Below are positions 1-12,300 of a DNA stretch of 32,536 nucleotides, piece by piece (the stretch's first letter is position 1; the number at the start of each line of letters is the position of its first letter). Below the pieces are notes generated by a model, which was given only the letters and a program-made list of their open reading frames with translations, was not told where the DNA came from and ran no database searches. The position numbers and the translations under genes were made by a program. This DNA comes from Candidatus Saccharimonadota bacterium (GTDB taxonomy: Bacteria; Patescibacteriota; Saccharimonadia; Saccharimonadales; Saccharimonadaceae), in the NCBI GenBank assembly GCA_027451185.1, contig DAIDJW010000001.1, positions 1-32,536 on the forward strand, in the 5' to 3' direction.

Positions 1-160
1 GACAAACAAGCGCGCAATTTTCGATCTGTTGTCCGAGTACAAATCGCTGCTTCTTTGGAAACGTATTCGCTTTCTCGAACAGCCACAAGGTTATCTCAAG
101 CATTTTTGTATGAATAATGAACTCGTCTGATTTTGCGGTGGGCTTGAGTTGTTTTGCCAT
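1..160 (-). CDS. avd: Avd-like four-helix-bundle protein (candidate DGR accessory variability determinant). Only the N-terminal 53 codons are present; the gene runs off the left edge.
   Basis: Absent from the ORF track because there is no stop in the window. ATG at 160..158 on the minus strand. Hand translation: MAKQLKPTAKSDEFIIHTKMLEITLWLFEKANTFPKKQRFVLGQQIENCALVC. The FPK-xx-RF-x-LG-xx-I segment matches my recollection of the Avd / 23S-rRNA-IVS four-helix-bundle family. It lies directly 3' of an FGE-type C-lectin gene on the same strand. Confidence 0.5.
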   Translation of the reverse strand, partial: MAKQLKPTAKSDEFIIHTKMLEITLWLFEKANTFPKKQRFVLGQQIENCALVC

Positions 161-230
161 CGGCAAAAGGCCTTTCTTGGATTATATCCAGTGCATAGTG
201 TCGTTACGATCGAGAAAAATAATTCACTTC

Positions 231-250
231 GTAAGCCCTGTCGGGCTTAC
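231..250 (-). other. Perfect 8-bp stem / 4-nt loop hairpin between the pilin-FGE gene and avd. Candidate DGR target-site hairpin, or alternatively a weak terminator.
   Basis: Plus strand gtaagccc-tgtc-gggcttac; minus strand GTAAGCCC-GACA-GGGCTTAC. It lies 41 nt past the stop codon at 292..294. No immediate U-run follows on the minus strand. Confidence 0.4.
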
Positions 251-291
251 CTAAGAACAAAGGGACAAAGCTGAAAGAGTCAAAGTCTGTA

Positions 292-1509
292 TCACCGCGA
301 GACACGGAACCCGAGGATGCTGCCCGTGCTGCCAGGCGAATTGCTCAAAGCGAGCGCCCAGACACCCGCAGCGCTGCCGCCGTTCCAGTAGTCGCTGCGG
401 AAGAAGCCGCGGACACCTGTGTCATTGCTAGCTGAATACAGTTGGCCAATACCTTGACCCGAGTTCCAACCGCTGGCAGATGGAATTCCGTACGATGGGA
501 ACGGATTAGGTGATAGGCTGCCGGTACCAGGGACACTGTTCCACTGTCGCCAGCCGAAGCCCGCAGCGCCTGGTTGGCCACCGGTGGTCGTGCCACTCGT
601 CCACTGCCAGACGTTGCCCGCCATATCCCAAATGACATTGCCGTTCGTTAAGGTGAGTGTGCGACGTTGATTACCACCCGTATTTGTTTCGCCGTAGTAA
701 CCGTTGCTATCATTAGTATCAGCCGCTAACGCATTAGCTGGGGCATTGTCGTTGTGTCCAGAATAGATATAGCCGCTTCCAACACTGCCACCAGACCAGT
801 TGCTGGCAACACTAGTAACGTTCTGTGCAATAGTGAGCCATTCGGCTTCGGTGATGAGATGGCAACCAGAACAGGCAGCTGCTGACGTAGAGATAGCTGT
901 TGTTTGGGAGATATTTACCCAGGGCGAACCAGCTGCGGTCGATACGGCGTTACCACTGCCATCGTTCTTAGCGTCATACTTCATCACACAGAAGGCATTA
1001 GTACCGTAAAGGCTGGAGCCAGGCACGACGATGTACCCAGTTGGACACGAAGAGCCGTCTGCCAGCGTTGTCGGTGCAGTTCCCGTGTGTCCTGGACATG
1101 GGCCAGCTGTTGGGGTACCACCAGTCGCGACAGAGTACGAGGCAGTACTAACCGTAGCGGTCAGACAATAGGTTTGTGGGCTGACGGTGGTGTTCGGCGT
1201 GTACTGATAGCTAGTGCTGCCAGAGTTTGTCAGGCCAGCGGTAGCGAGGTCTGGAGGGACTTGGTCGCTATTAGTAGCAGTGTAGATAGCGATCTTTTCT
1301 CCTGCCTGCTCAGCAGCAGACTGAGCTGAGGCAATGTTGGCTTTCGCAGTAATACCGTTGTAAGCGACAACGGTGATAGCCGCTAGGATGGCAATGACGA
1401 CAATAACGATGAGGAGTTCGACGAGGGTGAAGCCAGGTTGTCTACTGCGCTTTGGTGGATGTCCGCGCAGTGAAGCGTCGCCCTTGAGGATGAGGTTAAC
1501 AACAGCCAT
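292..1509 (-). CDS. Type IV pilin-like protein (prepilin cleavage/methylation motif) fused to an FGE-sulfatase/SUMF1-type C-lectin-fold domain. Candidate DGR target protein.
   Basis: 405-aa ORF. The N-terminus has QPG|FTLVELLIVIVVIAILAAI (G-1, F+1, E+5) after a 26-aa leader. The C-terminal half has FCVMKYDAKNDG, SPWVNISQ, HLITEAEWLTIAQN, DMAGNVWQWTSG and a terminal LGFRVSR. No Shine-Dalgarno; the ATG is preceded by (CT)9. Confidence 0.85.
   Translation of the reverse strand: MAVVNLILKGDASLRGHPPKRSRQPGFTLVELLIVIVVIAILAAITVVAYNGITAKANIASAQSAAEQAGEKIAIYTATNSDQVPPDLATAGLTNSGSTSYQYTPNTTVSPQTYCLTATVSTASYSVATGGTPTAGPCPGHTGTAPTTLADGSSCPTGYIVVPGSSLYGTNAFCVMKYDAKNDGSGNAVSTAAGSPWVNISQTTAISTSAAACSGCHLITEAEWLTIAQNVTSVASNWSGGSVGSGYIYSGHNDNAPANALAADTNDSNGYYGETNTGGNQRRTLTLTNGNVIWDMAGNVWQWTSGTTTGGQPGAAGFGWRQWNSVPGTGSLSPNPFPSYGIPSASGWNSGQGIGQLYSASNDTGVRGFFRSDYWNGGSAAGVWALALSNSPGSTGSILGFRVSR
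295..399 (-). other. Candidate DGR variable region (VR) at the extreme 3' end of the pilin-FGE gene. Its 5' limit is uncertain and could reach about 440.
   Basis: Encodes RSDYWNGGSAAGVWALALSNSPGSTGSILGFRVSR-stop. That is the usual position of the VR in FGE/C-lectin DGR targets. 17 of 29 codons before LGFR are NNC by hand count. No TR is available in the window for comparison. Confidence 0.35.
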
Positions 1510-1510
1510 A

Positions 1511-1528
1511 AGAGAGAGAGAGAGAGAG
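1511..1528. repeat. Dinucleotide microsatellite: (AG)9 on the plus strand, (CT)9 on the coding strand of the pilin-FGE gene.
   Basis: Read directly: agagagagagagagagag at 1511..1528, 2 nt from the start codon (1509..1507). The tract continues imperfectly as aagag to 1533. Confidence 0.95.
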
Positions 1529-1893
1529 AAGAGTTGCTAGTTTTATGAATCGTTGTGTAATTAGTGAAATTTCCACCGTTTTTACTAAAATTCATACGAC
1601 CGTACTTTCTTCTCTAGCTATATTAAATATGTCTAGTGGCAGTATACCATAAGCTAAATATAGCGTACAAGATATCCAACCAACGGACGAAAAGTCGGGC
1701 AGTTCGGCTTCATAAATATAGTTATGTGTAGTGCGGTTCACTAGGGGCGTGGGGATTCGTTCTTCCACCTCACGACCCCGTGAGTTCACGTTTGACAATC
1801 AATCGCCATCGGAACATCGCTCTCAAACTACCGCTGGCAGTTTTCGCCCCCTCATGTCACTCGGGTATTAGAATCGCTCAACCCTGAATCAAG

Positions 1894-1923
1894 AAAATAG
1901 ACCCGCAGAAGCAGGTCTATTTT
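1894..1923 (-). terminator. Rho-independent terminator after tRNA-Gln.
   Basis: aaaatagacc-cgcagaagca-ggtctatttt gives a 10-bp stem including the A/T runs. On the minus strand it is followed by TTTTCTTG. It starts 3 nt past the tRNA 3' end. Confidence 0.7.
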
Positions 1924-1925
1924 CT

Positions 1926-1999
1926 TGGCTGGGGATGAGGGATTCGAACCCCCGATCCTGGGACCAGAACCCAGTGCCTTACCGCTTGGCCAATCCCCA
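1926..1999 (-). tRNA. tRNA-Gln, anticodon CUG.
   Basis: Hand-folded, 74 nt. Acceptor TGGGGAT/ATCCCCA, 3-bp D stem GCC/GGC, anticodon stem CTGGG/CCCAG with loop TTCTGGT, T arm GGGGG-TTCGAAT-CCCTC, discriminator G, encoded CCA. Confidence 0.93.
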
Positions 2000-2016
2000 G
2001 TATTTGGTCTTGAGGA

Positions 2017-2045
2017 ATTGTAGCAAAAAAAGCTAATTTTCTCAA
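2017..2045 (-). promoter_or_regulatory. Sigma70-type promoter for tRNA-Gln.
   Basis: Minus strand TTGAGA (2045..2040), 17-nt spacer, TACAAT (2022..2017). It lies about 17 nt upstream of the tRNA 5' end. Confidence 0.55.
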
Positions 2046-2065
2046 GCTGGGCTTCTTAGTCACTA

Positions 2066-2094
2066 TTGACTTTTTTAAAATAATATAGTATAAA
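2066..2094 (+). promoter_or_regulatory. Sigma70-type promoter for ORF 2163..2630.
   Basis: TTGACT (2066..2071), 17-nt spacer, TATAAA (2089..2094). Confidence 0.55.
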
Positions 2095-2162
2095 TTGTCT
2101 ATTCCCGTAGCCACTCGAGAAAGTTCCCTAAACCCATCACACCAGCCACCGAAGGGTGTAAC

Positions 2163-2630
2163 ATGTCTCTCGCGAACGAGAAAAACCCATTACATGCCAG
2201 TGCGTTGCGCTTGCGCGACCTGACGGTCGGACGGCACATCATCGCGTTCAACATCGACCTCGGTATCATGGGCGAGTACATCGTCATGAGCCGGCCGTTT
2301 GTCGGCGACGGCATGTTCGGTCGCACCACCATGGTGAGCCTGCGAAACACACAGACTGGTCTCGCAGACTCACACTACACCGAAGACCTCGGTGTCACGA
2401 TGTATCTGAGCGACGACGAGCAGCCGAACAACTACTGGAACTCCGTCAACTTCACGATCGACCACCGCAAGCGGCACCTGCTGCCGAAGCCGTTGATCGA
2501 CTCGGGCACAGGCATCGACGACCTGGAGACTAGGATACTACGCCGTATCCTGACCGATTCCTCCGAGGAGTACGCGGCCGACGTGGAGGCGATGGACCGA
2601 CTCTGGCGGGCACTGGAGGCGATGGAGTAG
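2163..2630 (+). CDS. Hypothetical protein (155 aa) with markedly GC3-rich codon usage. Probably horizontally acquired.
   Basis: The ORF has its own promoter and an AAGGGTG SD-like element 4 nt upstream. Codons are almost all NNC/NNG (GAC, ATC, CTG, AAC, CGC), unlike flanking genes. Hand-counted GC is about 55-65% per 60-nt block. I recognise no family. Confidence 0.6.
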   Translation: MSLANEKNPLHASALRLRDLTVGRHIIAFNIDLGIMGEYIVMSRPFVGDGMFGRTTMVSLRNTQTGLADSHYTEDLGVTMYLSDDEQPNNYWNSVNFTIDHRKRHLLPKPLIDSGTGIDDLETRILRRILTDSSEEYAADVEAMDRLWRALEAME

Positions 2631-6753: not shown

Positions 6754-8823
6754 ATGAGAAGACGTGGCTTCACCCTGGTCGAGTTGCTGATTGTTATTTC
6801 TGTGATCGGCATTTTAACGACCGTCGCAGCCATTAGTTATTCGGTTGTTCAACGTAATTCGCGCGACACTGTTCGCGCCGCGCAACTAGCAACCATCGAT
6901 AATGCGCTTGAAGATTATTATCAAAAAAACGGCGAATATCCACCAGCGCGTAATATTGTTAATAGTTATAGCAGCAACACCGCCCAATCGGTCGCCAACT
7001 TATTGGGTATTAACGCCTCAAACCTCGATCTGCCAGGCTGCCCAACCGGCGTAAATCCATTCATTAGTTCACCGACTAATGCTACGACTTGCACAATCGT
7101 TTACCAGCCGTCGTCGAATATCAATAACACCACTTGCGAAACTGCTACCAACGGTGGTTGTGATTCGTTTGTGTTGACTTATTCTAAAGAAAGTGGCCAG
7201 ACAGTAGCTATCAATAGTCGACGCTCTGGCCGACCGGAAGGCGCCGTAGCCGACGCACCACCGGCGCCAACTGTCACGGTTAGCGGTAGCGGCACAACCG
7301 CCACCGCCCAGTCGTCGGTTGCCCAGTGCGGCAGTGCCACAACACCTAAATATTCATTTAATTACCGTCCAAGCGGTGGGGCGTGGGGCAGCTGGACTAT
7401 TTTTCAGGCCAACCCCAGTTATTCTTATGGCGGCTTAACCGTCGGCAGTAATTATGGTTTTGAGGTTGAAGCCCGTTGCGATAATGGCGCCTACATCGGC
7501 AACCTTAGCAACCCAAGCGCCGAGGTTATCTATCAAGTGCCGATACCAGCGCCGACAGCAACGACAGTTACAACAAGCGCCGAAACAAGTACCGGCGTAG
7601 CCTTTTCGTGGCCAGCTCAACAATACGCCACCAGTTATAATTATCAATACCGCATCAATGGCGGCGCCTGGTCATCTAACCAGTCAACTACTAGCACGGC
7701 CGCAACAATTAGTAGCTCTAATGGCGCCCATGTTGAACTACAAGCTCAAGCGGTTAACCCAACCGGTACATCTGGCTGGTCGAACATTGCCAGCGGCTAC
7801 TTACTGCCGGCGGCCCCGACAGCATCGTACACATCCGTCACCACTACAACCATGGTCTTCAATTGGACGACCGTCACCGGGGCAACTCGTTACGAATTTC
7901 AGTATCGAGTCAATAGCGGCGCCTGGTCGGGTACGGTTAACGACGGCGCGTCAACGACCTGGACGGCCGGACCGACTACACCCGGTACAAGAATTGAAAT
8001 CCAGGTACATGCCATTAACAGCGACGGTAATGCTGGACCATGGTCGACCGTCGTCGGTACAACCCTAGGTATCGGAACGCCTGCCTGGAACGCTTGGGGT
8101 CGCACCGATACCTTTCCAACTTGGACAACTTGGGTATACAACAACAGCGGTGCGTCGCTGTGCGGTGGCGCAAGTATCTATTCGTCATTCCACGATGGTG
8201 TTGTTAACTCATTCTGGAATGGCTGGGGCGCCTTTGGTAGCAACGGCGGTAGTTCAGAAACGCTGCATTATGGATCATACATCGCCAGCTACTACACAAC
8301 CTTACAAACTGAAATTCAAGGCTACTGTCGTAACGACGCCACCGGCGTGCAGTCGCCAACCATTAGTAGCGGCGTCAGCACGACGACACACGCCCAACCA
8401 AATGTTGTGCTGTCGGGGCCCGTGGTGTGCGCCGGCACATATTCGGGGCGTAGCGCTTTCCAAATAAGGTTACAGGTCCAAGAAACTAGCTATAACCTTG
8501 ACGCCGACCAAAGTAATGTTCACTGGTACTTATACCGATATGCCGCCGCATCTGGCTGGCAGACATACGACCAAACTAAAACCTGGCCATGGTCGGTTAG
8601 TGTCAACGGGTCTGGTTGGTCGGGTAGTAGTAACTCTGGCCGCTGGCGATATTCGGCTAGCGTTGTTGGCGATACCGAAGGAATCGCTTCGGGTGACGTT
8701 ACGGTTACCCACGACGGCAACGGTAACGCCACGATTGGTTTCTCGGGGTCAGATGGACCGGGCAGTTCCATTTTCGGCAGCGCATCGTGTTCTGGCGCCT
8801 ATGGTTTATCTAAATTACGCTAA
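6754..8823 (+). CDS. Large type IV pilin-like protein (689 aa) with three tandem Fn3-like modules and a C-terminal domain resembling phage tail / DUF859-type proteins.
   Basis: MRRRG|FTLVELLIVISVIGIL prepilin motif. Three repeats of about 90 aa each carry Y-x-F/Y-x-YR-x-xGGAW (YSFNYRPSGGAWGSW, YNYQYRINGGAWSS, YEFQYRVNSGAWSG). C-terminus: SYNLDADQSNVHWYLYRY...WSVSVNGSGWSGS...GDVTVTHDGNGNATIGFSGS. Confidence 0.85.
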   Translation: MRRRGFTLVELLIVISVIGILTTVAAISYSVVQRNSRDTVRAAQLATIDNALEDYYQKNGEYPPARNIVNSYSSNTAQSVANLLGINASNLDLPGCPTGVNPFISSPTNATTCTIVYQPSSNINNTTCETATNGGCDSFVLTYSKESGQTVAINSRRSGRPEGAVADAPPAPTVTVSGSGTTATAQSSVAQCGSATTPKYSFNYRPSGGAWGSWTIFQANPSYSYGGLTVGSNYGFEVEARCDNGAYIGNLSNPSAEVIYQVPIPAPTATTVTTSAETSTGVAFSWPAQQYATSYNYQYRINGGAWSSNQSTTSTAATISSSNGAHVELQAQAVNPTGTSGWSNIASGYLLPAAPTASYTSVTTTTMVFNWTTVTGATRYEFQYRVNSGAWSGTVNDGASTTWTAGPTTPGTRIEIQVHAINSDGNAGPWSTVVGTTLGIGTPAWNAWGRTDTFPTWTTWVYNNSGASLCGGASIYSSFHDGVVNSFWNGWGAFGSNGGSSETLHYGSYIASYYTTLQTEIQGYCRNDATGVQSPTISSGVSTTTHAQPNVVLSGPVVCAGTYSGRSAFQIRLQVQETSYNLDADQSNVHWYLYRYAAASGWQTYDQTKTWPWSVSVNGSGWSGSSNSGRWRYSASVVGDTEGIASGDVTVTHDGNGNATIGFSGSDGPGSSIFGSASCSGAYGLSKLR

Positions 8824-8833
8824 CGAAAATTAG

Positions 8834-9322
8834 CTAGCTGGTTTTAATACGCCGATAAGCGAATTTGGTTTTAACGCGCCAACCGCCGTGAGAATCAGCA
8901 TCAAACTGATATATCTGGCCATTTTTAACCTCATTAATCATGACCAGGGCCGGGTTATAAGGGGCCAAAGTTTTATAAAAAGCTAGGTCTTCGCTGGTGA
9001 CATTGCCGCGACCCGGAAAAACCATTCGAAACTTTGCGGCAGCGATTTCTTCAAAATACTGCGGCCGACCCTTAGGTGGTAAATATAGTTCAGCCTTTAA
9101 ACCAACTCGCGATACAATCTTCTTCACATCGTCGAGCAATAATTTTGATTGGCCTTGAATATAAAGGTAGAGCTGTTTTTTATCACTCAAAAAAAGCGTC
9201 GCCACGTCGGTGCGACTGACCGGTAGATTCCTTGCGATTACCGTGTCAACTTCGAGACTTACTCCGAACTGCGCCCGCACCAGCTTTTCAAGATGAAAGT
9301 CGTCATACATCTGGTCGTTCAT
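8834..9322 (-). CDS. Hypothetical protein (about 162 aa).
   Basis: The track ORF begins at a GTG (9337). I prefer the ATG at 9322 (MNDQMYDD) because TACAAT (9334..9329) lies 6 nt upstream. No family recognised. Confidence 0.55.
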   Translation of the reverse strand: MNDQMYDDFHLEKLVRAQFGVSLEVDTVIARNLPVSRTDVATLFLSDKKQLYLYIQGQSKLLLDDVKKIVSRVGLKAELYLPPKGRPQYFEEIAAAKFRMVFPGRGNVTSEDLAFYKTLAPYNPALVMINEVKNGQIYQFDADSHGGWRVKTKFAYRRIKTS

Positions 9323-9328
9323 AGGCAT

Positions 9329-9334
9329 ATTGTA
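9329..9334 (-). promoter_or_regulatory. -10 box TACAAT, 6 nt upstream of ATG 9322 (leaderless-type).
   Basis: Minus strand TACAAT-ATGCCT-ATG. Confidence 0.35.
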
Positions 9335-9346
9335 CACCGTCAGGCG

Positions 9347-9352
9347 TATAAT
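9347..9352 (+). promoter_or_regulatory. -10 box TATAAT, 8 nt upstream of ATG 9361, with no SD (leaderless-type).
   Basis: TATAAT-gataagta-ATG. Confidence 0.45.
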
Positions 9353-9360
9353 GATAAGTA

Positions 9361-12300
9361 ATGGAGTTTAATGAACGTTACCACAAGTTAAATGACGCCC
9401 AAAAAAAGGCGGTCGATACTATTGATGGTCCAGTGATGGTCGTGGCCGGCCCAGGTACCGGCAAGACCGAACTTTTAAGCGTCCGTGCGGCCAATATCTT
9501 ACAAAAAACCGACACTCTACCAGAAAACATTTTGTGCTTAACTTTTACCGAAAGCGGCGCCGCTGCCATGCGCGAACGTCTGGTGGGTATTATTGGGCGC
9601 GATGCCTATAAAATTGCCGTTCATACTTTTCATAGTTTTGGTAGCGAGATTATATCGAATAACCGCGACTATTTTTATCGTGGCGCCAAGTTTCAGCCAG
9701 CTGACGAGCTAGCGACCTATGAGATTTTGCGCGCAATTTTTGCCACGCTCGACTACAACAACCCGCTAGCCTCGGTTATGAACGATGAGTTCACCTACCT
9801 GCGTGACACCCAAAGAATTATCTCGCAGCTAAAAAGTAGCGGCCTGACCAGCGACGAACTGCGGACCGTTTTAAATACTAACGACCTAACAATCGACGTC
9901 GTCGAGCAACTGCTTGCCCCAATTTTTGTCGAGCGCAGCAGCAAACAAACCGTCGCTAAACTCGAAGCTCAGCTGGATAAAATTCGCGCTATCGACGATC
10001 AGCAAATTTTACCAGAGATTCCACGCTTGTCGGTTATGTTGGCCGATAATCTAGCCTTAGCGATTGACCAATTTCATGAAATTAACAAAACTTCACCCAT
10101 TACAGCCTGGCGGGAGAGTTGGTTCAAAAAAGATAATAGTGGCAAATATATTTTAAAAGCGCGCGCGCAACAGCTGAAACTACGGGCAGTCGACCAAATT
10201 TATTATGAATATATAAGCCACATGGAGCAGGCGGGCTTATATGATTTTGATGATATGATCCTGCAGGTGGTGCACGCCTTATCGGTGAACGACGACCTAC
10301 GTTTTAATCTGCAGGAAAAGTATCTCTATATTATGGTCGACGAATTCCAGGACACCAACCTAGCCCAAATGCGCATTGTGCGCAGCTTAACCGACAACCC
10401 GGCCAGCGAAGGTAAGCCAAATATCATGGTGGTTGGCGATGACGACCAGGCAATTTATAGTTTTCAGGGAGCTTTAGTCAGTAATATCTTAGATTTTGAA
10501 CACGAATTTCCAAGCTTGAAGCGAATTGTCTTGACCGACAATTACCGTTCGGCCGCTGAAATCTTAAAAAGTGCTCGATCGGTGATTAGGCTAGGCCAAG
10601 ACAGGCTTGAGGACCGTATTGACGGCCTGTCAAAAGAACTCACCGCCAAAAAACCCGGCGCTGGACAGGTACAGTTGCACGAAGCCACGACTGCGCTTGA
10701 CGAGCGCCACTGGCTAGTCGAAAGTATCGCCGCCGATATTAAAAAGGGCACCAAACCGTCTGACATCGCCGTCTTTACGCGGCATCACCGCGATATCGCC
10801 AGCTTACTGCCATTCTTTGCCCACGCCAAAATTAATGTTCATTACGAGCGTCGCGACAACGTCCTAGGGCTTGAACCAATTGTGCAACTAGAGTATTTGG
10901 CGCGTGTTGTGATTGCTATGGCTAACAGCCAACTAGAGCTAGCCGATAGCCTCTTGCCAGAGTTATTAGCTCATCCAGCCTGGGGGTTTAGTGCCAGCGA
11001 TATCTGGAAACTGAGCGTTAACGCCCACGACAACCATGCCCGCTGGTTAGACACGATGGCTATCACACCTAAATTTGTCGACCTTCAGGAATGGTTAACC
11101 GAAATGGCTATGCGTTCGCGCTATACACCGCTCGAAGCGATGCTTGACCTACTAATCGGTCGACCGAACGAGGCCGTCGAAGCGCTATCCTTTACTAGTT
11201 CGTTTTACAATTATTTCTTTTCGTCGACAGCCCTAGACCAAGACCCCGAAAGCTATTTACTATTCCTTAACGGTCTGCGCAGCTTGCGCAATAAATTAAG
11301 CGACTACAAGGCTGGCGAGGGTTTGAAGCTTGAGGGTTTGACTGAATTTATCGACTTACATCGCCGTCTTGGCAGCACTATACGCGTTAACGGTGTCGGT
11401 GACGAGCGGGTTGATAACGCGGTCAATTTAATGACCGCGCACGCCTCGAAGGGACTTGAGTTTGATACGGTGTACGTTGTTGGTGCCATTGACAAGACAT
11501 GGGGCGAAAAAGCCCGCCCCGGCCAGCGCTTGATTAGTTATCCCGAAAACTTACAGCAACTAGCCCCAGCCGGCGAAACCACCGATGAAAGATTGCGCTT
11601 GTTCTACGTTGCTTTAACACGCGCCAAAAAATCACTGCATATCAGCTACAGTCTTCACGACGATAAAGATAAAGGCTGCCTACGAGTTAGCTTTTTAGCT
11701 GGCGATGGCTGGGCTGTTAAACCAATTACTGCGCCTAAGACGATCGCGGCTGCGACCGAGATGCTAGCCACTGCTTGGTACGAGCCATTGGTGACACCTA
11801 CGACCGAGTTAAATCAATTGCTAGCACCAATTCTACATAACTACAAACTTAGTGCTACCCATTTGAACGCTTTTGTTGACGTCGTTAAGGGTGGTCCGCA
11901 AGCCTTTTTATTGAATCACTTATTACGCTTTCCGCAGGCCCCAAGTCCGCAACTATCGTACGGTCGAGCCATCCACCAAACGCTACAACAAGCCCATTTG
12001 CATTTAACGAAGACTGGCGAAAAAAGACCACTCGAAGATATTTTAGGCGATCTTGAAACCAATTTACAAGCTCAGCGCCTTAGCGCCCTCGATTACGAAA
12101 CCTACTTGCAGCAGGGGAGCGACGAACTACGAACCTACCTTAACGCTCGCTACGATAGCTTTACACCTGAACAAAAAACCGAGCTAAACTTTGCCGGTCA
12201 AAACTCAGTTGTCGGCGACGCGATTTTAACCGGATCGCTTGACCTTGTTTTAATTAATGACGTCGATAAAACAATCGACATCACTGATTATAAAACCGGT

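Follow-up and report, generated by a model that had tools for sequence, protein, structure and literature searches.

What lies at the left end of a 32,536-nucleotide (nt) contig from a Candidatus Saccharimonadota bacterium (DAIDJW010000001.1, assembly GCA_027451185.1), where two genes follow one another on the minus strand and the second runs off the DNA? A preliminary description had read the pair as part of a diversity-generating retroelement (DGR). The window analyzed here is that whole contig, right through to both ends; all coordinates are positions in it, and its left end lies inside the second gene, avd, which encodes a cofactor of the DGR reverse transcriptase (RT). Our data indicate that 1..1509 (-) is very probably the target-proximal half of a Patescibacteria-type DGR in a Saccharibacteria-like chromosome. 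The target gene encodes a type IV pilin whose globular part has a C-type-lectin (CLec) fold, the variable repeat (VR) is the final ~130 nt of that gene (290..420), and avd starts 131 nt downstream of it, past a GC hairpin with a GACA loop. That the window belongs to a Saccharibacteria-like chromosome is based on the taxa matched by avd, as the labels of genome matches were mostly Saccharibacteria, Saccharimonadales or Microsaccharimonas (metagenome-assembled genomes), and on the ordinary chromosomal genes that the window carries (ATP synthase, Dus, and a UvrD-like helicase). An Rfam scan of 1..2500 gave a tRNA-Gln gene as the sole match, and an exact look-up of the target protein, aimed at extending the contig, returned no record.

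The target gene occupies 292..1509 (-) and encodes a protein of 405 amino acids (aa) ending in LGFRVSR before the stop codon, just as described before. It had been described as an FGE/C-lectin protein. The lectin fold was borne out by profile, model and Foldseek, but the assignment was incomplete, as the N-terminal type IV pilin module had been overlooked. The prepilin cleavage/methylation motif is at residues 21-46 (1372..1449, -), where …RQPG is followed by FTLVELLIVIVVIAILAAI with Gly-1, Phe+1 and Glu+5. The features of a class III signal peptide (…RQPG followed by FTLVELLIVIVVIAILAAITVVAY) were all observed, namely the leader Gly, Phe+1, Glu+5 and a hydrophobic stretch of ~20 residues. The protein scored 34.3 bits with Pfam N_methyl (PF07963; cut-off 21.2) and 30.9 bits with TIGR02532 (cut-off 16.3), and a profile of 38 homologues matched solved type IV pilins (geopilin, PilA, and PilE) over residues 15-120 with E values of 1e-11 to 1e-13. 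In the AlphaFold2 (AF2) model the pilin part has an alpha-1 helix at 29-79 (50 residues) and then a beta-sheet at 99-128, with a predicted local distance difference test score (pLDDT) of around 90. The predicted model has the “lollipop” form of type IV pilins, with the long N-terminal alpha-1 helix packed on the beta-sheet.

The remainder of the protein, residues ~150-405 (295..1062, -), is the head domain, for which the evidence came from profile matches, the AF2 model and Foldseek. The FGE-sulfatase profile check called for by the preliminary description did give a match (PF03781, residues 189-306, E 2.6e-4), but at 21.2 bits it fell below the 23.3-bit gathering score, and it spanned only profile positions 85-191 of 255. 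The homologue profile also matched the DGR variable protein TaqVP (5VF4) over residues 178-298 (E 6.8e-5). Overall, the AF2 model had a pLDDT of 86 and a predicted template modelling score of 0.84, and ran from the helix through a small beta-sheet into a large globular domain. The top Foldseek matches in the PDB were TaqVP 5VF4 (E 1e-8), Mtd of phage BPP-1 and TvpA of Treponema, with E values for these three ranging from 1e-8 to 4e-3, and the structures of EgtB and FGE enzymes ranked behind them. TaqVP, Mtd and TvpA are the three solved DGR variable proteins. We considered whether the target is itself an FGE enzyme, since it has the FGE fold, and did not class it as one: the PF03781 match that would place it among the FGE/SUMF1/EgtB enzymes is sub-threshold, and the DGR variable proteins are closer to it in structure. 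The target is, in its predicted structure, a modular type IV pilin with a CLec-fold head, and its variable codons, 364-399 of 405, lie near the C-terminus, as is found in DGR targets of this fold.

At E <= 1e-3 the target family takes in 2196 of the 8000 candidate proteins that were given a score. A PilM-like gene was observed upstream of the target in one related locus (L005; L numbers designate the related loci). Some family members that are 59-66% identical to the target are labelled Actinobacteria in public records (P0018, P0021, P0052, P0055; L100, L101), the labels being Glaciihabitans, Cryobacterium lyxosi, Demequina and uncultured Microbacterium. Actinobacteria are the host phylum of Saccharibacteria. 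These labelled members could represent horizontal transfer, mis-binning or co-assembled epibionts. A look-up of P0021, aimed at whether such members sit on Saccharibacteria-like contigs, returned no record. One of these loci, L100, has two target-family genes, and neither has an adjacent avd or RT. The window has a second pilin-like gene at 6754..8823 (+), which encodes 689 aa with an N_methyl motif and fibronectin type III repeats. As a second CLec target it was rejected, because it has only the N-terminal helix in common with the target and has fibronectin type III repeats instead of a CLec domain.

Downstream of the target, avd starts at 160..158, and its first 53 codons (1..160, -) run off the contig. 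The earlier suggestion that these 53 aa resemble Avd proved sound. The fragment matched NCBIfam DivGenRetAVD (NF033474) with an E value of 3.4e-5 over profile positions 2-38 of 104, and Pfam bAvd (PF22296) with an E value of 1.5e-3. Neither score reaches its whole-protein cut-off, since the contig holds just one third or so of Avd, and the fragment scored higher on the DGR-specific Avd model than on the generic family. A protein search and scans of genome and metagenome contigs revealed avd relatives that are 71-95% identical. Two of these, L006 and L029, are full-length and 90% identical to the fragment over residues 13-53, and they scored 89 and 87 bits, above the 80-bit equivalog cut-off of DivGenRetAVD. 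On these comparisons we consider the fragment to be a genuine Avd N-terminus, and the window to have the Avd that is expected of a DGR. We also noted that the avd start codon sits within a 7-bp stem (TTTTGCC GAT GGCAAAA) at 152..168. This hairpin, in its plus-strand reading, was the sole terminator-like call in 1..2200. The stem may occlude initiation of avd translation, or it may have arisen by chance.

What a complete element of this kind looks like can be seen in the relatives. The layout proposed in the preliminary description, target-avd-TR-RT (TR, template repeat), was not found in them. Instead, 13 related loci (mostly Saccharibacteria) that have an RT and adenine-biased TR/VR differences share the order target, avd, convergent RT on the opposite strand, TR and structured RNA. 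In these loci the TR lies beyond the RT start codon and is oriented like the VR. The locus L005 (JGI Ga0494704_002892) is an example. Its target gene (8574..9851, encoding a 425-aa pilin-CLec protein) is followed by a ~150-nt spacer, avd (10001..10395) and, with a 28-nt overlap of the avd end, an RT gene (10368..11474, -) encoding 368 aa with the motifs IGNLTSQ and YMDD and a match to Pfam RVT_1. The TR is 132 nt long (11511..11642), begins 36 nt beyond the RT start codon, and repeats the last 133 nt of the target gene. Thirteen of the 14 differences between TR and VR are at TR adenines, the remaining one being a 1-nt gap. The same order, orientation and adenine bias were observed in L006, L007, L012-L014, L017-L019, L021, L022 and L025; L020 keeps the order, but TR adenines account for no more than 7 of the 12 mismatches there.

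Directly 3' of the TR we observed a conserved RNA-like element in 11 loci (L005, at 11643..11785, L006, L007, L012, L013, L017-L021, and L025). Its pattern is GGCCCGATAT-hairpin-GTGCC…TATCCG…ACCAGTCT…GGCYGYGCGGTTNAGTCTCGC…, 15 of its 29 predicted pairs show compensatory changes, and in one helix the 3' end of the TR pairs with sequence downstream. In these loci TR and RT are divergent and 30-80 nt apart. The compensatory changes argue for a TR transcript that runs the same way as the VR despite the inverted RT. The element probably represents the spacer part of the DGR RNA, and it fits the TR-spacer RNA of BPP-1, which reportedly primes cDNA synthesis, a finding attributed to Handa et al. 2018. 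DGR cassettes with an inverted RT are known but uncommon (PMC6642488).

Having these relatives, we could define the VR of the window and compare it with others of its lineage. Close relatives were used in these comparisons because the window's own TR lies out of view. The VR boundaries come from alignment to the TR/VR pairs of 12-14 related loci, by which the inferred VR is ~131 nt long (290..420, -) and ends at the stop codon (…CGGTGATA). The VR always ends there in the related loci, whereas their TRs end in …CGGGATA or …CGGTATA. The G+C content of the VR region is 0.67, versus 0.50 window-wide. Comparison with relatives placed the hypervariable codons at 364-399 (313..420, -). Between the window and the 84%-identical L003, codons 363-405 had 20 nonsynonymous and 4 synonymous codon differences, in comparison to 46 nonsynonymous and 137 synonymous in codons 1-362 (Fisher p 4e-8). 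Next, three VRs (window, L003, and L028) were placed in one alignment with 12 related TRs, and the columns with A in >=75% of the TRs were taken as TR-adenine columns. Variation among the three VRs was found in 20 of the 24 TR-adenine columns and in 18 of the 101 other columns (p 2.4e-9), and the changes sit at codon positions 1 and 2 of would-be AAC/AAT codons. Overall, these data are strong evidence, read from the sequences, that the target gene of this lineage has been rewritten by adenine mutagenesis in the past, in events that are undated. The preliminary description had also pointed to an excess of NNC codons, with 17 of the 29 codons before LGFR and roughly 4 in 10 of the preceding ~75. 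Its counts were exact (28/75 for the latter, and 155/406 gene-wide), and, as it had itself cautioned, the support is weak, since the binomial p is only 0.013.

Variation in and around the VR was compared between assemblies, not reads. The nonsynonymous excess and the coincidence with TR adenines were found in the VR, and L028 (Logan SRR29076162) also diverges upstream. L028 differs from the window at 2 positions in the first 918 nt of the target and then diverges abruptly from codon ~307. This divergence (292..590) includes synonymous sites and starts ~55 codons upstream of the VR. To us the break looks like a recombinational replacement of the whole C-terminal third of the gene, in addition to DGR mutagenesis.

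Between target and avd lies a spacer of 131 nt (161..291, -), the length given for it before, and the perfect hairpin reported in it was also found. This hairpin is at 231..250 (-), where GTAAGCCC-GACA-GGGCTTAC forms an 8-bp stem and a 4-nt loop. A perfect stem of at least 8 bp with a loop of 3-8 nt arose in 34 of 5000 shuffles of the spacer, which makes a chance origin unlikely. Taken as a whole, the spacer was not unusually structured (z -1.2). A GC-rich inverted repeat downstream of the VR, such as this one, is found in a minority to a majority of DGRs and is not strictly defining. At the equivalent site, other hairpins with different stems were observed in L006 (GGCGAGCCT-GACA-AGGCTCGCC), L016/L017 (GCGAGCCC-AGC-GGGCTCGC), L005/L009/L010 (AGGGCGG-CTKGT-CCGCCCT) and L025 (7-bp stem). 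Efficient retrohoming in BPP-1 depends on a hairpin/cruciform that lies past the VR (Guo et al. 2011, PMC3240598), and the published consensus is a stem of 7-10 bp with a 5'-GRNA loop, 4-34 bp from the VR (PMC3240598). The window hairpin fits this consensus in stem length and loop. By analogy, our best guess is that it has a role in target recognition. It was rejected as an intrinsic terminator, because there was no minus-strand terminator call and no T-run follows it.

Other parts of the spacer also show patterns. Ahead of the hairpin, 251..291 (-) is pyrimidine-rich, with CTT/CTCTT motifs every ~8 nt (GACTTTGACTCTTTCAGCTTTGTCCCTTTGTTCTTAGG), and this pattern is kept in L005-L010, L015-L019 and L021 despite sequence drift. 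Three relatives have a ~75-nt insertion after the target stop, between …GGTGAT and ACAGAC (L003 4253..4330, L005 9852..9925, and L024), and the window is without it. The insertion has its own hairpin and ends in …TATCCC-loop-GGGATA, resembling the TR 3' end CGGGATA. At the same spot L010 and L012 have only a hairpin of 9-10 bp (TTATCCCGC CTTG GCGGGATAA).

Several observations weigh against the reading of this locus as a functioning DGR. As the preliminary description had anticipated, only two of the four defining parts of a DGR are visible: no match was obtained anywhere in the 32.5 kb with the L005 RT (tblastn), a repeat search and blastn-short revealed no TR and no copy of 281..440 elsewhere in the window, and a scan of JGI metagenome contigs with the lineage-specific TR/VR pattern GGGTGTNTGGGCGCTCNNTTTNANCNATTCGNCTNGC gave 0 matches. 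RT and TR are missing from the window because the contig ends inside avd, 160 nt into the gene, and with the TR out of sight the VR cannot be matched to its own template. In addition, the relatives show that the cassette can be lost. The closest strain is represented jointly by L028 and L004, which share a Logan run and a 29-nt overlap; L004 is 97% identical to 44..313 of the window, and its avd is broken after codon 36 (window position 44), with unrelated DNA beyond. In L001-L003, which represent the 84%-identical relative, an rRNA methyltransferase gene is found downstream in place of avd and RT. Cassette loss is common in this lineage, and so the window element could be incomplete past its 53 codons. 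About one third of the related loci are without such a hairpin, and that of the window begins ~39 nt past the inferred VR end (~290), or 41 nt past the stop, slightly beyond the published 4-34 bp. Finally, the incorporation of the target into a pilus and its binding of a ligand are predictions from sequence.

Such losses raise the possibility of a decayed or orphaned DGR, in which the VR and the first part of avd would be fossils of a cassette deleted or cut short just past coordinate 1, and the target would no longer be diversified, or may still be acted on in trans by a DGR elsewhere. This would be in keeping with L004, where the sequence passes after codon 36 of avd into a Laminin_G_3 fragment and unrelated genes, with the orthologous pilin gene of L001-L003 that has no neighbouring avd or RT, with the shortened avd of L024 and L060, and with the two family members of L100 that are without an adjacent cassette. 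However, the avd frame of the window stays open for 17 codons past the L004 breakpoint, and there KKQRFVLGQQIENCALVC is a near residue-for-residue match to intact Avd proteins. The avd start codon and the region upstream of it are also intact, and the contig just ends, with no junction to foreign DNA. Because avd continues past the L004 breakpoint with typical Avd sequence, an intact element is the likelier state; we consider decay to be unlikely, and that the element is complete in its source genome to be somewhat better than an even chance.

It might also be argued that there is no DGR here, and that an FGE/SUMF1-type enzyme or lectin-pilin gene happens to lie beside a gene for a generic four-helix-bundle protein (23S rRNA IVP-like), with C-terminal variability that results from ordinary positive selection or recombination. 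The FGE-sulfatase and bAvd matches of the window are indeed each below the gathering score, and the sharp L028 break at codon ~307 is well upstream of the VR, which shows that recombination contributes to C-terminal diversity. This explanation is strongly disfavoured, and we give it hardly any probability. The avd fragment favours the DGR-specific Avd model and its full-length relatives exceed the equivalog cut-off; 13 homologous loci have the gene pair together with an RT and a TR with adenine-specific mismatches; the variable sites in the window's own lineage coincide with TR-adenine columns (p 2.4e-9); and DGR variable proteins precede the FGE and EgtB enzymes as structural neighbours.

Taking the locus as half of a DGR, the 13 homologous loci suggest what would lie beyond coordinate 1. 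There would be ~65 further avd codons, a DGR RT of ~370 aa encoded on the opposite strand and convergent with avd, and then a TR of ~125-135 nt in the orientation of the VR, ~1.7 kb from it, followed by the conserved structured RNA. By mutagenic retrohoming, the established DGR mechanism, the RT-Avd complex would copy the TR-containing RNA and place random nucleotides opposite template adenines. The cDNA would then replace the VR, with its 3' boundary at the stop-codon region, where the VR (…CGGTGATA) and the TRs of relatives (…CGGGATA/…CGGTATA) part, and the downstream hairpin would assist in this replacement. In the lectin head this would rewrite some 19-20 codons of the ligand-binding face. 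The target would be exported, processed as a pilin and displayed on the type IV pilus, such that the cell could vary what its pilus binds. The most plausible ligands would be surface glycans of host bacteria.

During these studies we noted two simple-sequence tracts that may bear on how the element is expressed. Directly 5' of the target ATG, the window has the pyrimidine tract CTCTT(CT)9T (1510..1533, -). A (CT)n tract with n of 8-16 is conserved ahead of the Phe+1 codon, at a distance of 36-183 nt, in 22 target loci: the window (1511..1528), L001-L003, L005-L007, L010, L019, L021, L022, L028, L029, L032, L033, L036-L038, L053 and L055-L057. Its length varies even between near-identical loci, with 9 repeats in the window vs 11 in L028, 14 vs 12 in L021 and L022, 14 vs 13 in L032 and L033, and 13 vs 12 in L036 and L038; L003 has 14. 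Some loci have the tract within an extended N-terminal coding region (…LSLSLS…), the frame of which it determines; in others it belongs to the 5' leader. The window tract abuts the target ATG. An ATG further upstream, at 1595, is out of frame with the pilin gene in the window but in frame in L028. The tract may be a phase-variation or regulatory element. The idea that it always lies in an upstream coding extension was rejected, as in several loci the upstream ATG runs into a stop ahead of the tract, and a start that gives a short leader follows it.

The second tract is a homopolymer of G7-G17 inside avd, in the loop after the second helix and ~100 nt after the FPK codon, that was observed in 12 related loci (L005, at 10198..10210, L010, L011, L012, L015, L043-L047, L052, and L097). 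Five of these loci are in frame, four need a -1 shift, one needs a +1 shift and the remaining two could not be given a score. Several contigs end at the tract, among them L045 and L097. All 17 of the 17 Avd matches of the protein search were short products, most of which stop in or just after the encoded poly-Gly, and one of the short Avd clusters represents 46 contigs. The tract has the look of a switch that turns the RT cofactor ON or OFF by strand slippage, the alternative being Illumina error at long poly-G. A single programmed ribosomal frameshift site was rejected, since the out-of-frame loci call for opposite shifts, -1 in four and +1 in one, and another five need none. The window ends ~40 nt short of the expected site, and its two closest Avd relatives differ in whether they have the tract.

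We tentatively propose, while thinking it likelier to fail than to hold, that there is a type IV pilin family conserved across Saccharibacteria, and possibly the wider Patescibacteria, which has a DGR-rewritten lectin head and may be under up to three hypermutable switches. The switches would be the DGR, unusual in its layout with a convergent RT and the TR beyond, the (CT)n tract and, in a subclade, the G7-G17 tract of avd. If true, an episymbiont would have a pilus adhesin whose specificity is both switched and re-randomised for finding host cells, and a function would be at hand for the DGR targets of the Candidate Phyla Radiation (CPR) that published surveys left without recognisable domains. 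The value of the window itself is limited, as half of the element is missing. What holds moderate interest, and can be put to a direct test, is the family-level point that a DGR target widespread in Saccharibacteria is a pilin. Because a type IV pilin N-terminus is fused to a variable lectin fold, the hypervariable surface would be placed on a pilus. Lectin-like modular minor pilins of Saccharibacteria type IV pili are needed for host binding, in a study that does not mention retroelements (PMC11623550). Since such pili and pilins mediate host binding in cultivated Saccharibacteria, the target family offers a concrete and testable route to a change in host recognition, and obligate episymbionts could adapt their recognition of hosts through a DGR-rewritten pilin head.

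How does this locus compare with known systems? DGRs are enriched and well documented in Patescibacteria/CPR (PMC8144416). Roux et al. 2021 described a Patescibacteria-restricted DGR clade, “clade 2”, with targets that typically have no recognisable transmembrane or conserved domains (PMC8144416), and Wu et al. 2018 found much the same for their CPR set (PMC5758913). The window resembles these DGRs in its host group, in being cellular and chromosomal, and in having avd and a CLec-type VR. It differs in its target family, whose N-terminal prepilin domain is clear even though it scores weakly; targets in the surveys typically have no domain that can be recognised. Whether CPR DGR targets are surface proteins had been left open in the surveys (PMC8144416). 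Pilin-type domains in DGR targets received passing mentions only within the literature searched (“G-type pilin” in PMC11661182; PMC6642488), and nothing in that literature, which did not include Paul et al. 2017, joined “diversity-generating” with “prepilin” in the present sense.

In comparison to the prototype, the BPP-1 DGR of a Bordetella phage (mtd-avd-TR-brt), the locus likewise has a CLec-fold variable protein, a VR at the extreme 3' end of its gene and avd directly downstream. Both have a GC-rich hairpin of 8 bp and 4 nt downstream of the VR with a GRNA-type loop (GAAA in BPP-1 and GACA in the window; PMC3240598), and TR/VR differences at adenines, which here were seen in the relatives of the window. 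The BPP-1 target, however, is the tip of a phage tail fibre, whereas here it is a chromosomal type IV pilin. The order in BPP-1 is avd-TR-brt, whereas the window's relatives have an RT of opposite strand and, past it, the TR. The BPP-1 hairpin also follows the VR immediately, unlike that of the window at ~39 nt from the inferred VR end. TaqVP of Thermus aquaticus (5VF4), TvpA of Treponema denticola (2Y3C) and Mtd (1YU0) share with the target the FGE-like CLec fold and variable residues at the C-terminal end, but they are only 12-19% identical to it in sequence, and none has an N-terminal pilin module. That module is instead found in the modular pilins PilB/PilC of Streptococcus sanguinis (PMC8179133) and PilX1/PilX2 of TM7x (PMC11623550), which similarly join it to a large C-terminal binding domain. 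Their binding modules, though, are of the vWA, L-type/PLL-type lectin and beta-propeller kinds, with no CLec/FGE fold and no reported diversification by a DGR. The rewriting of an adhesive pilus subunit by a DGR has a parallel in Bacteroides, as reported in a preprint (bioRxiv 10.1101/2024.11.15.621889); the targets described there are type V pilus tip adhesins, of another phylum and another target family. The locus adds one more DGR to an already known kind of element, and its link to the pilus suggests a way in which these tiny episymbionts might vary their attachment.

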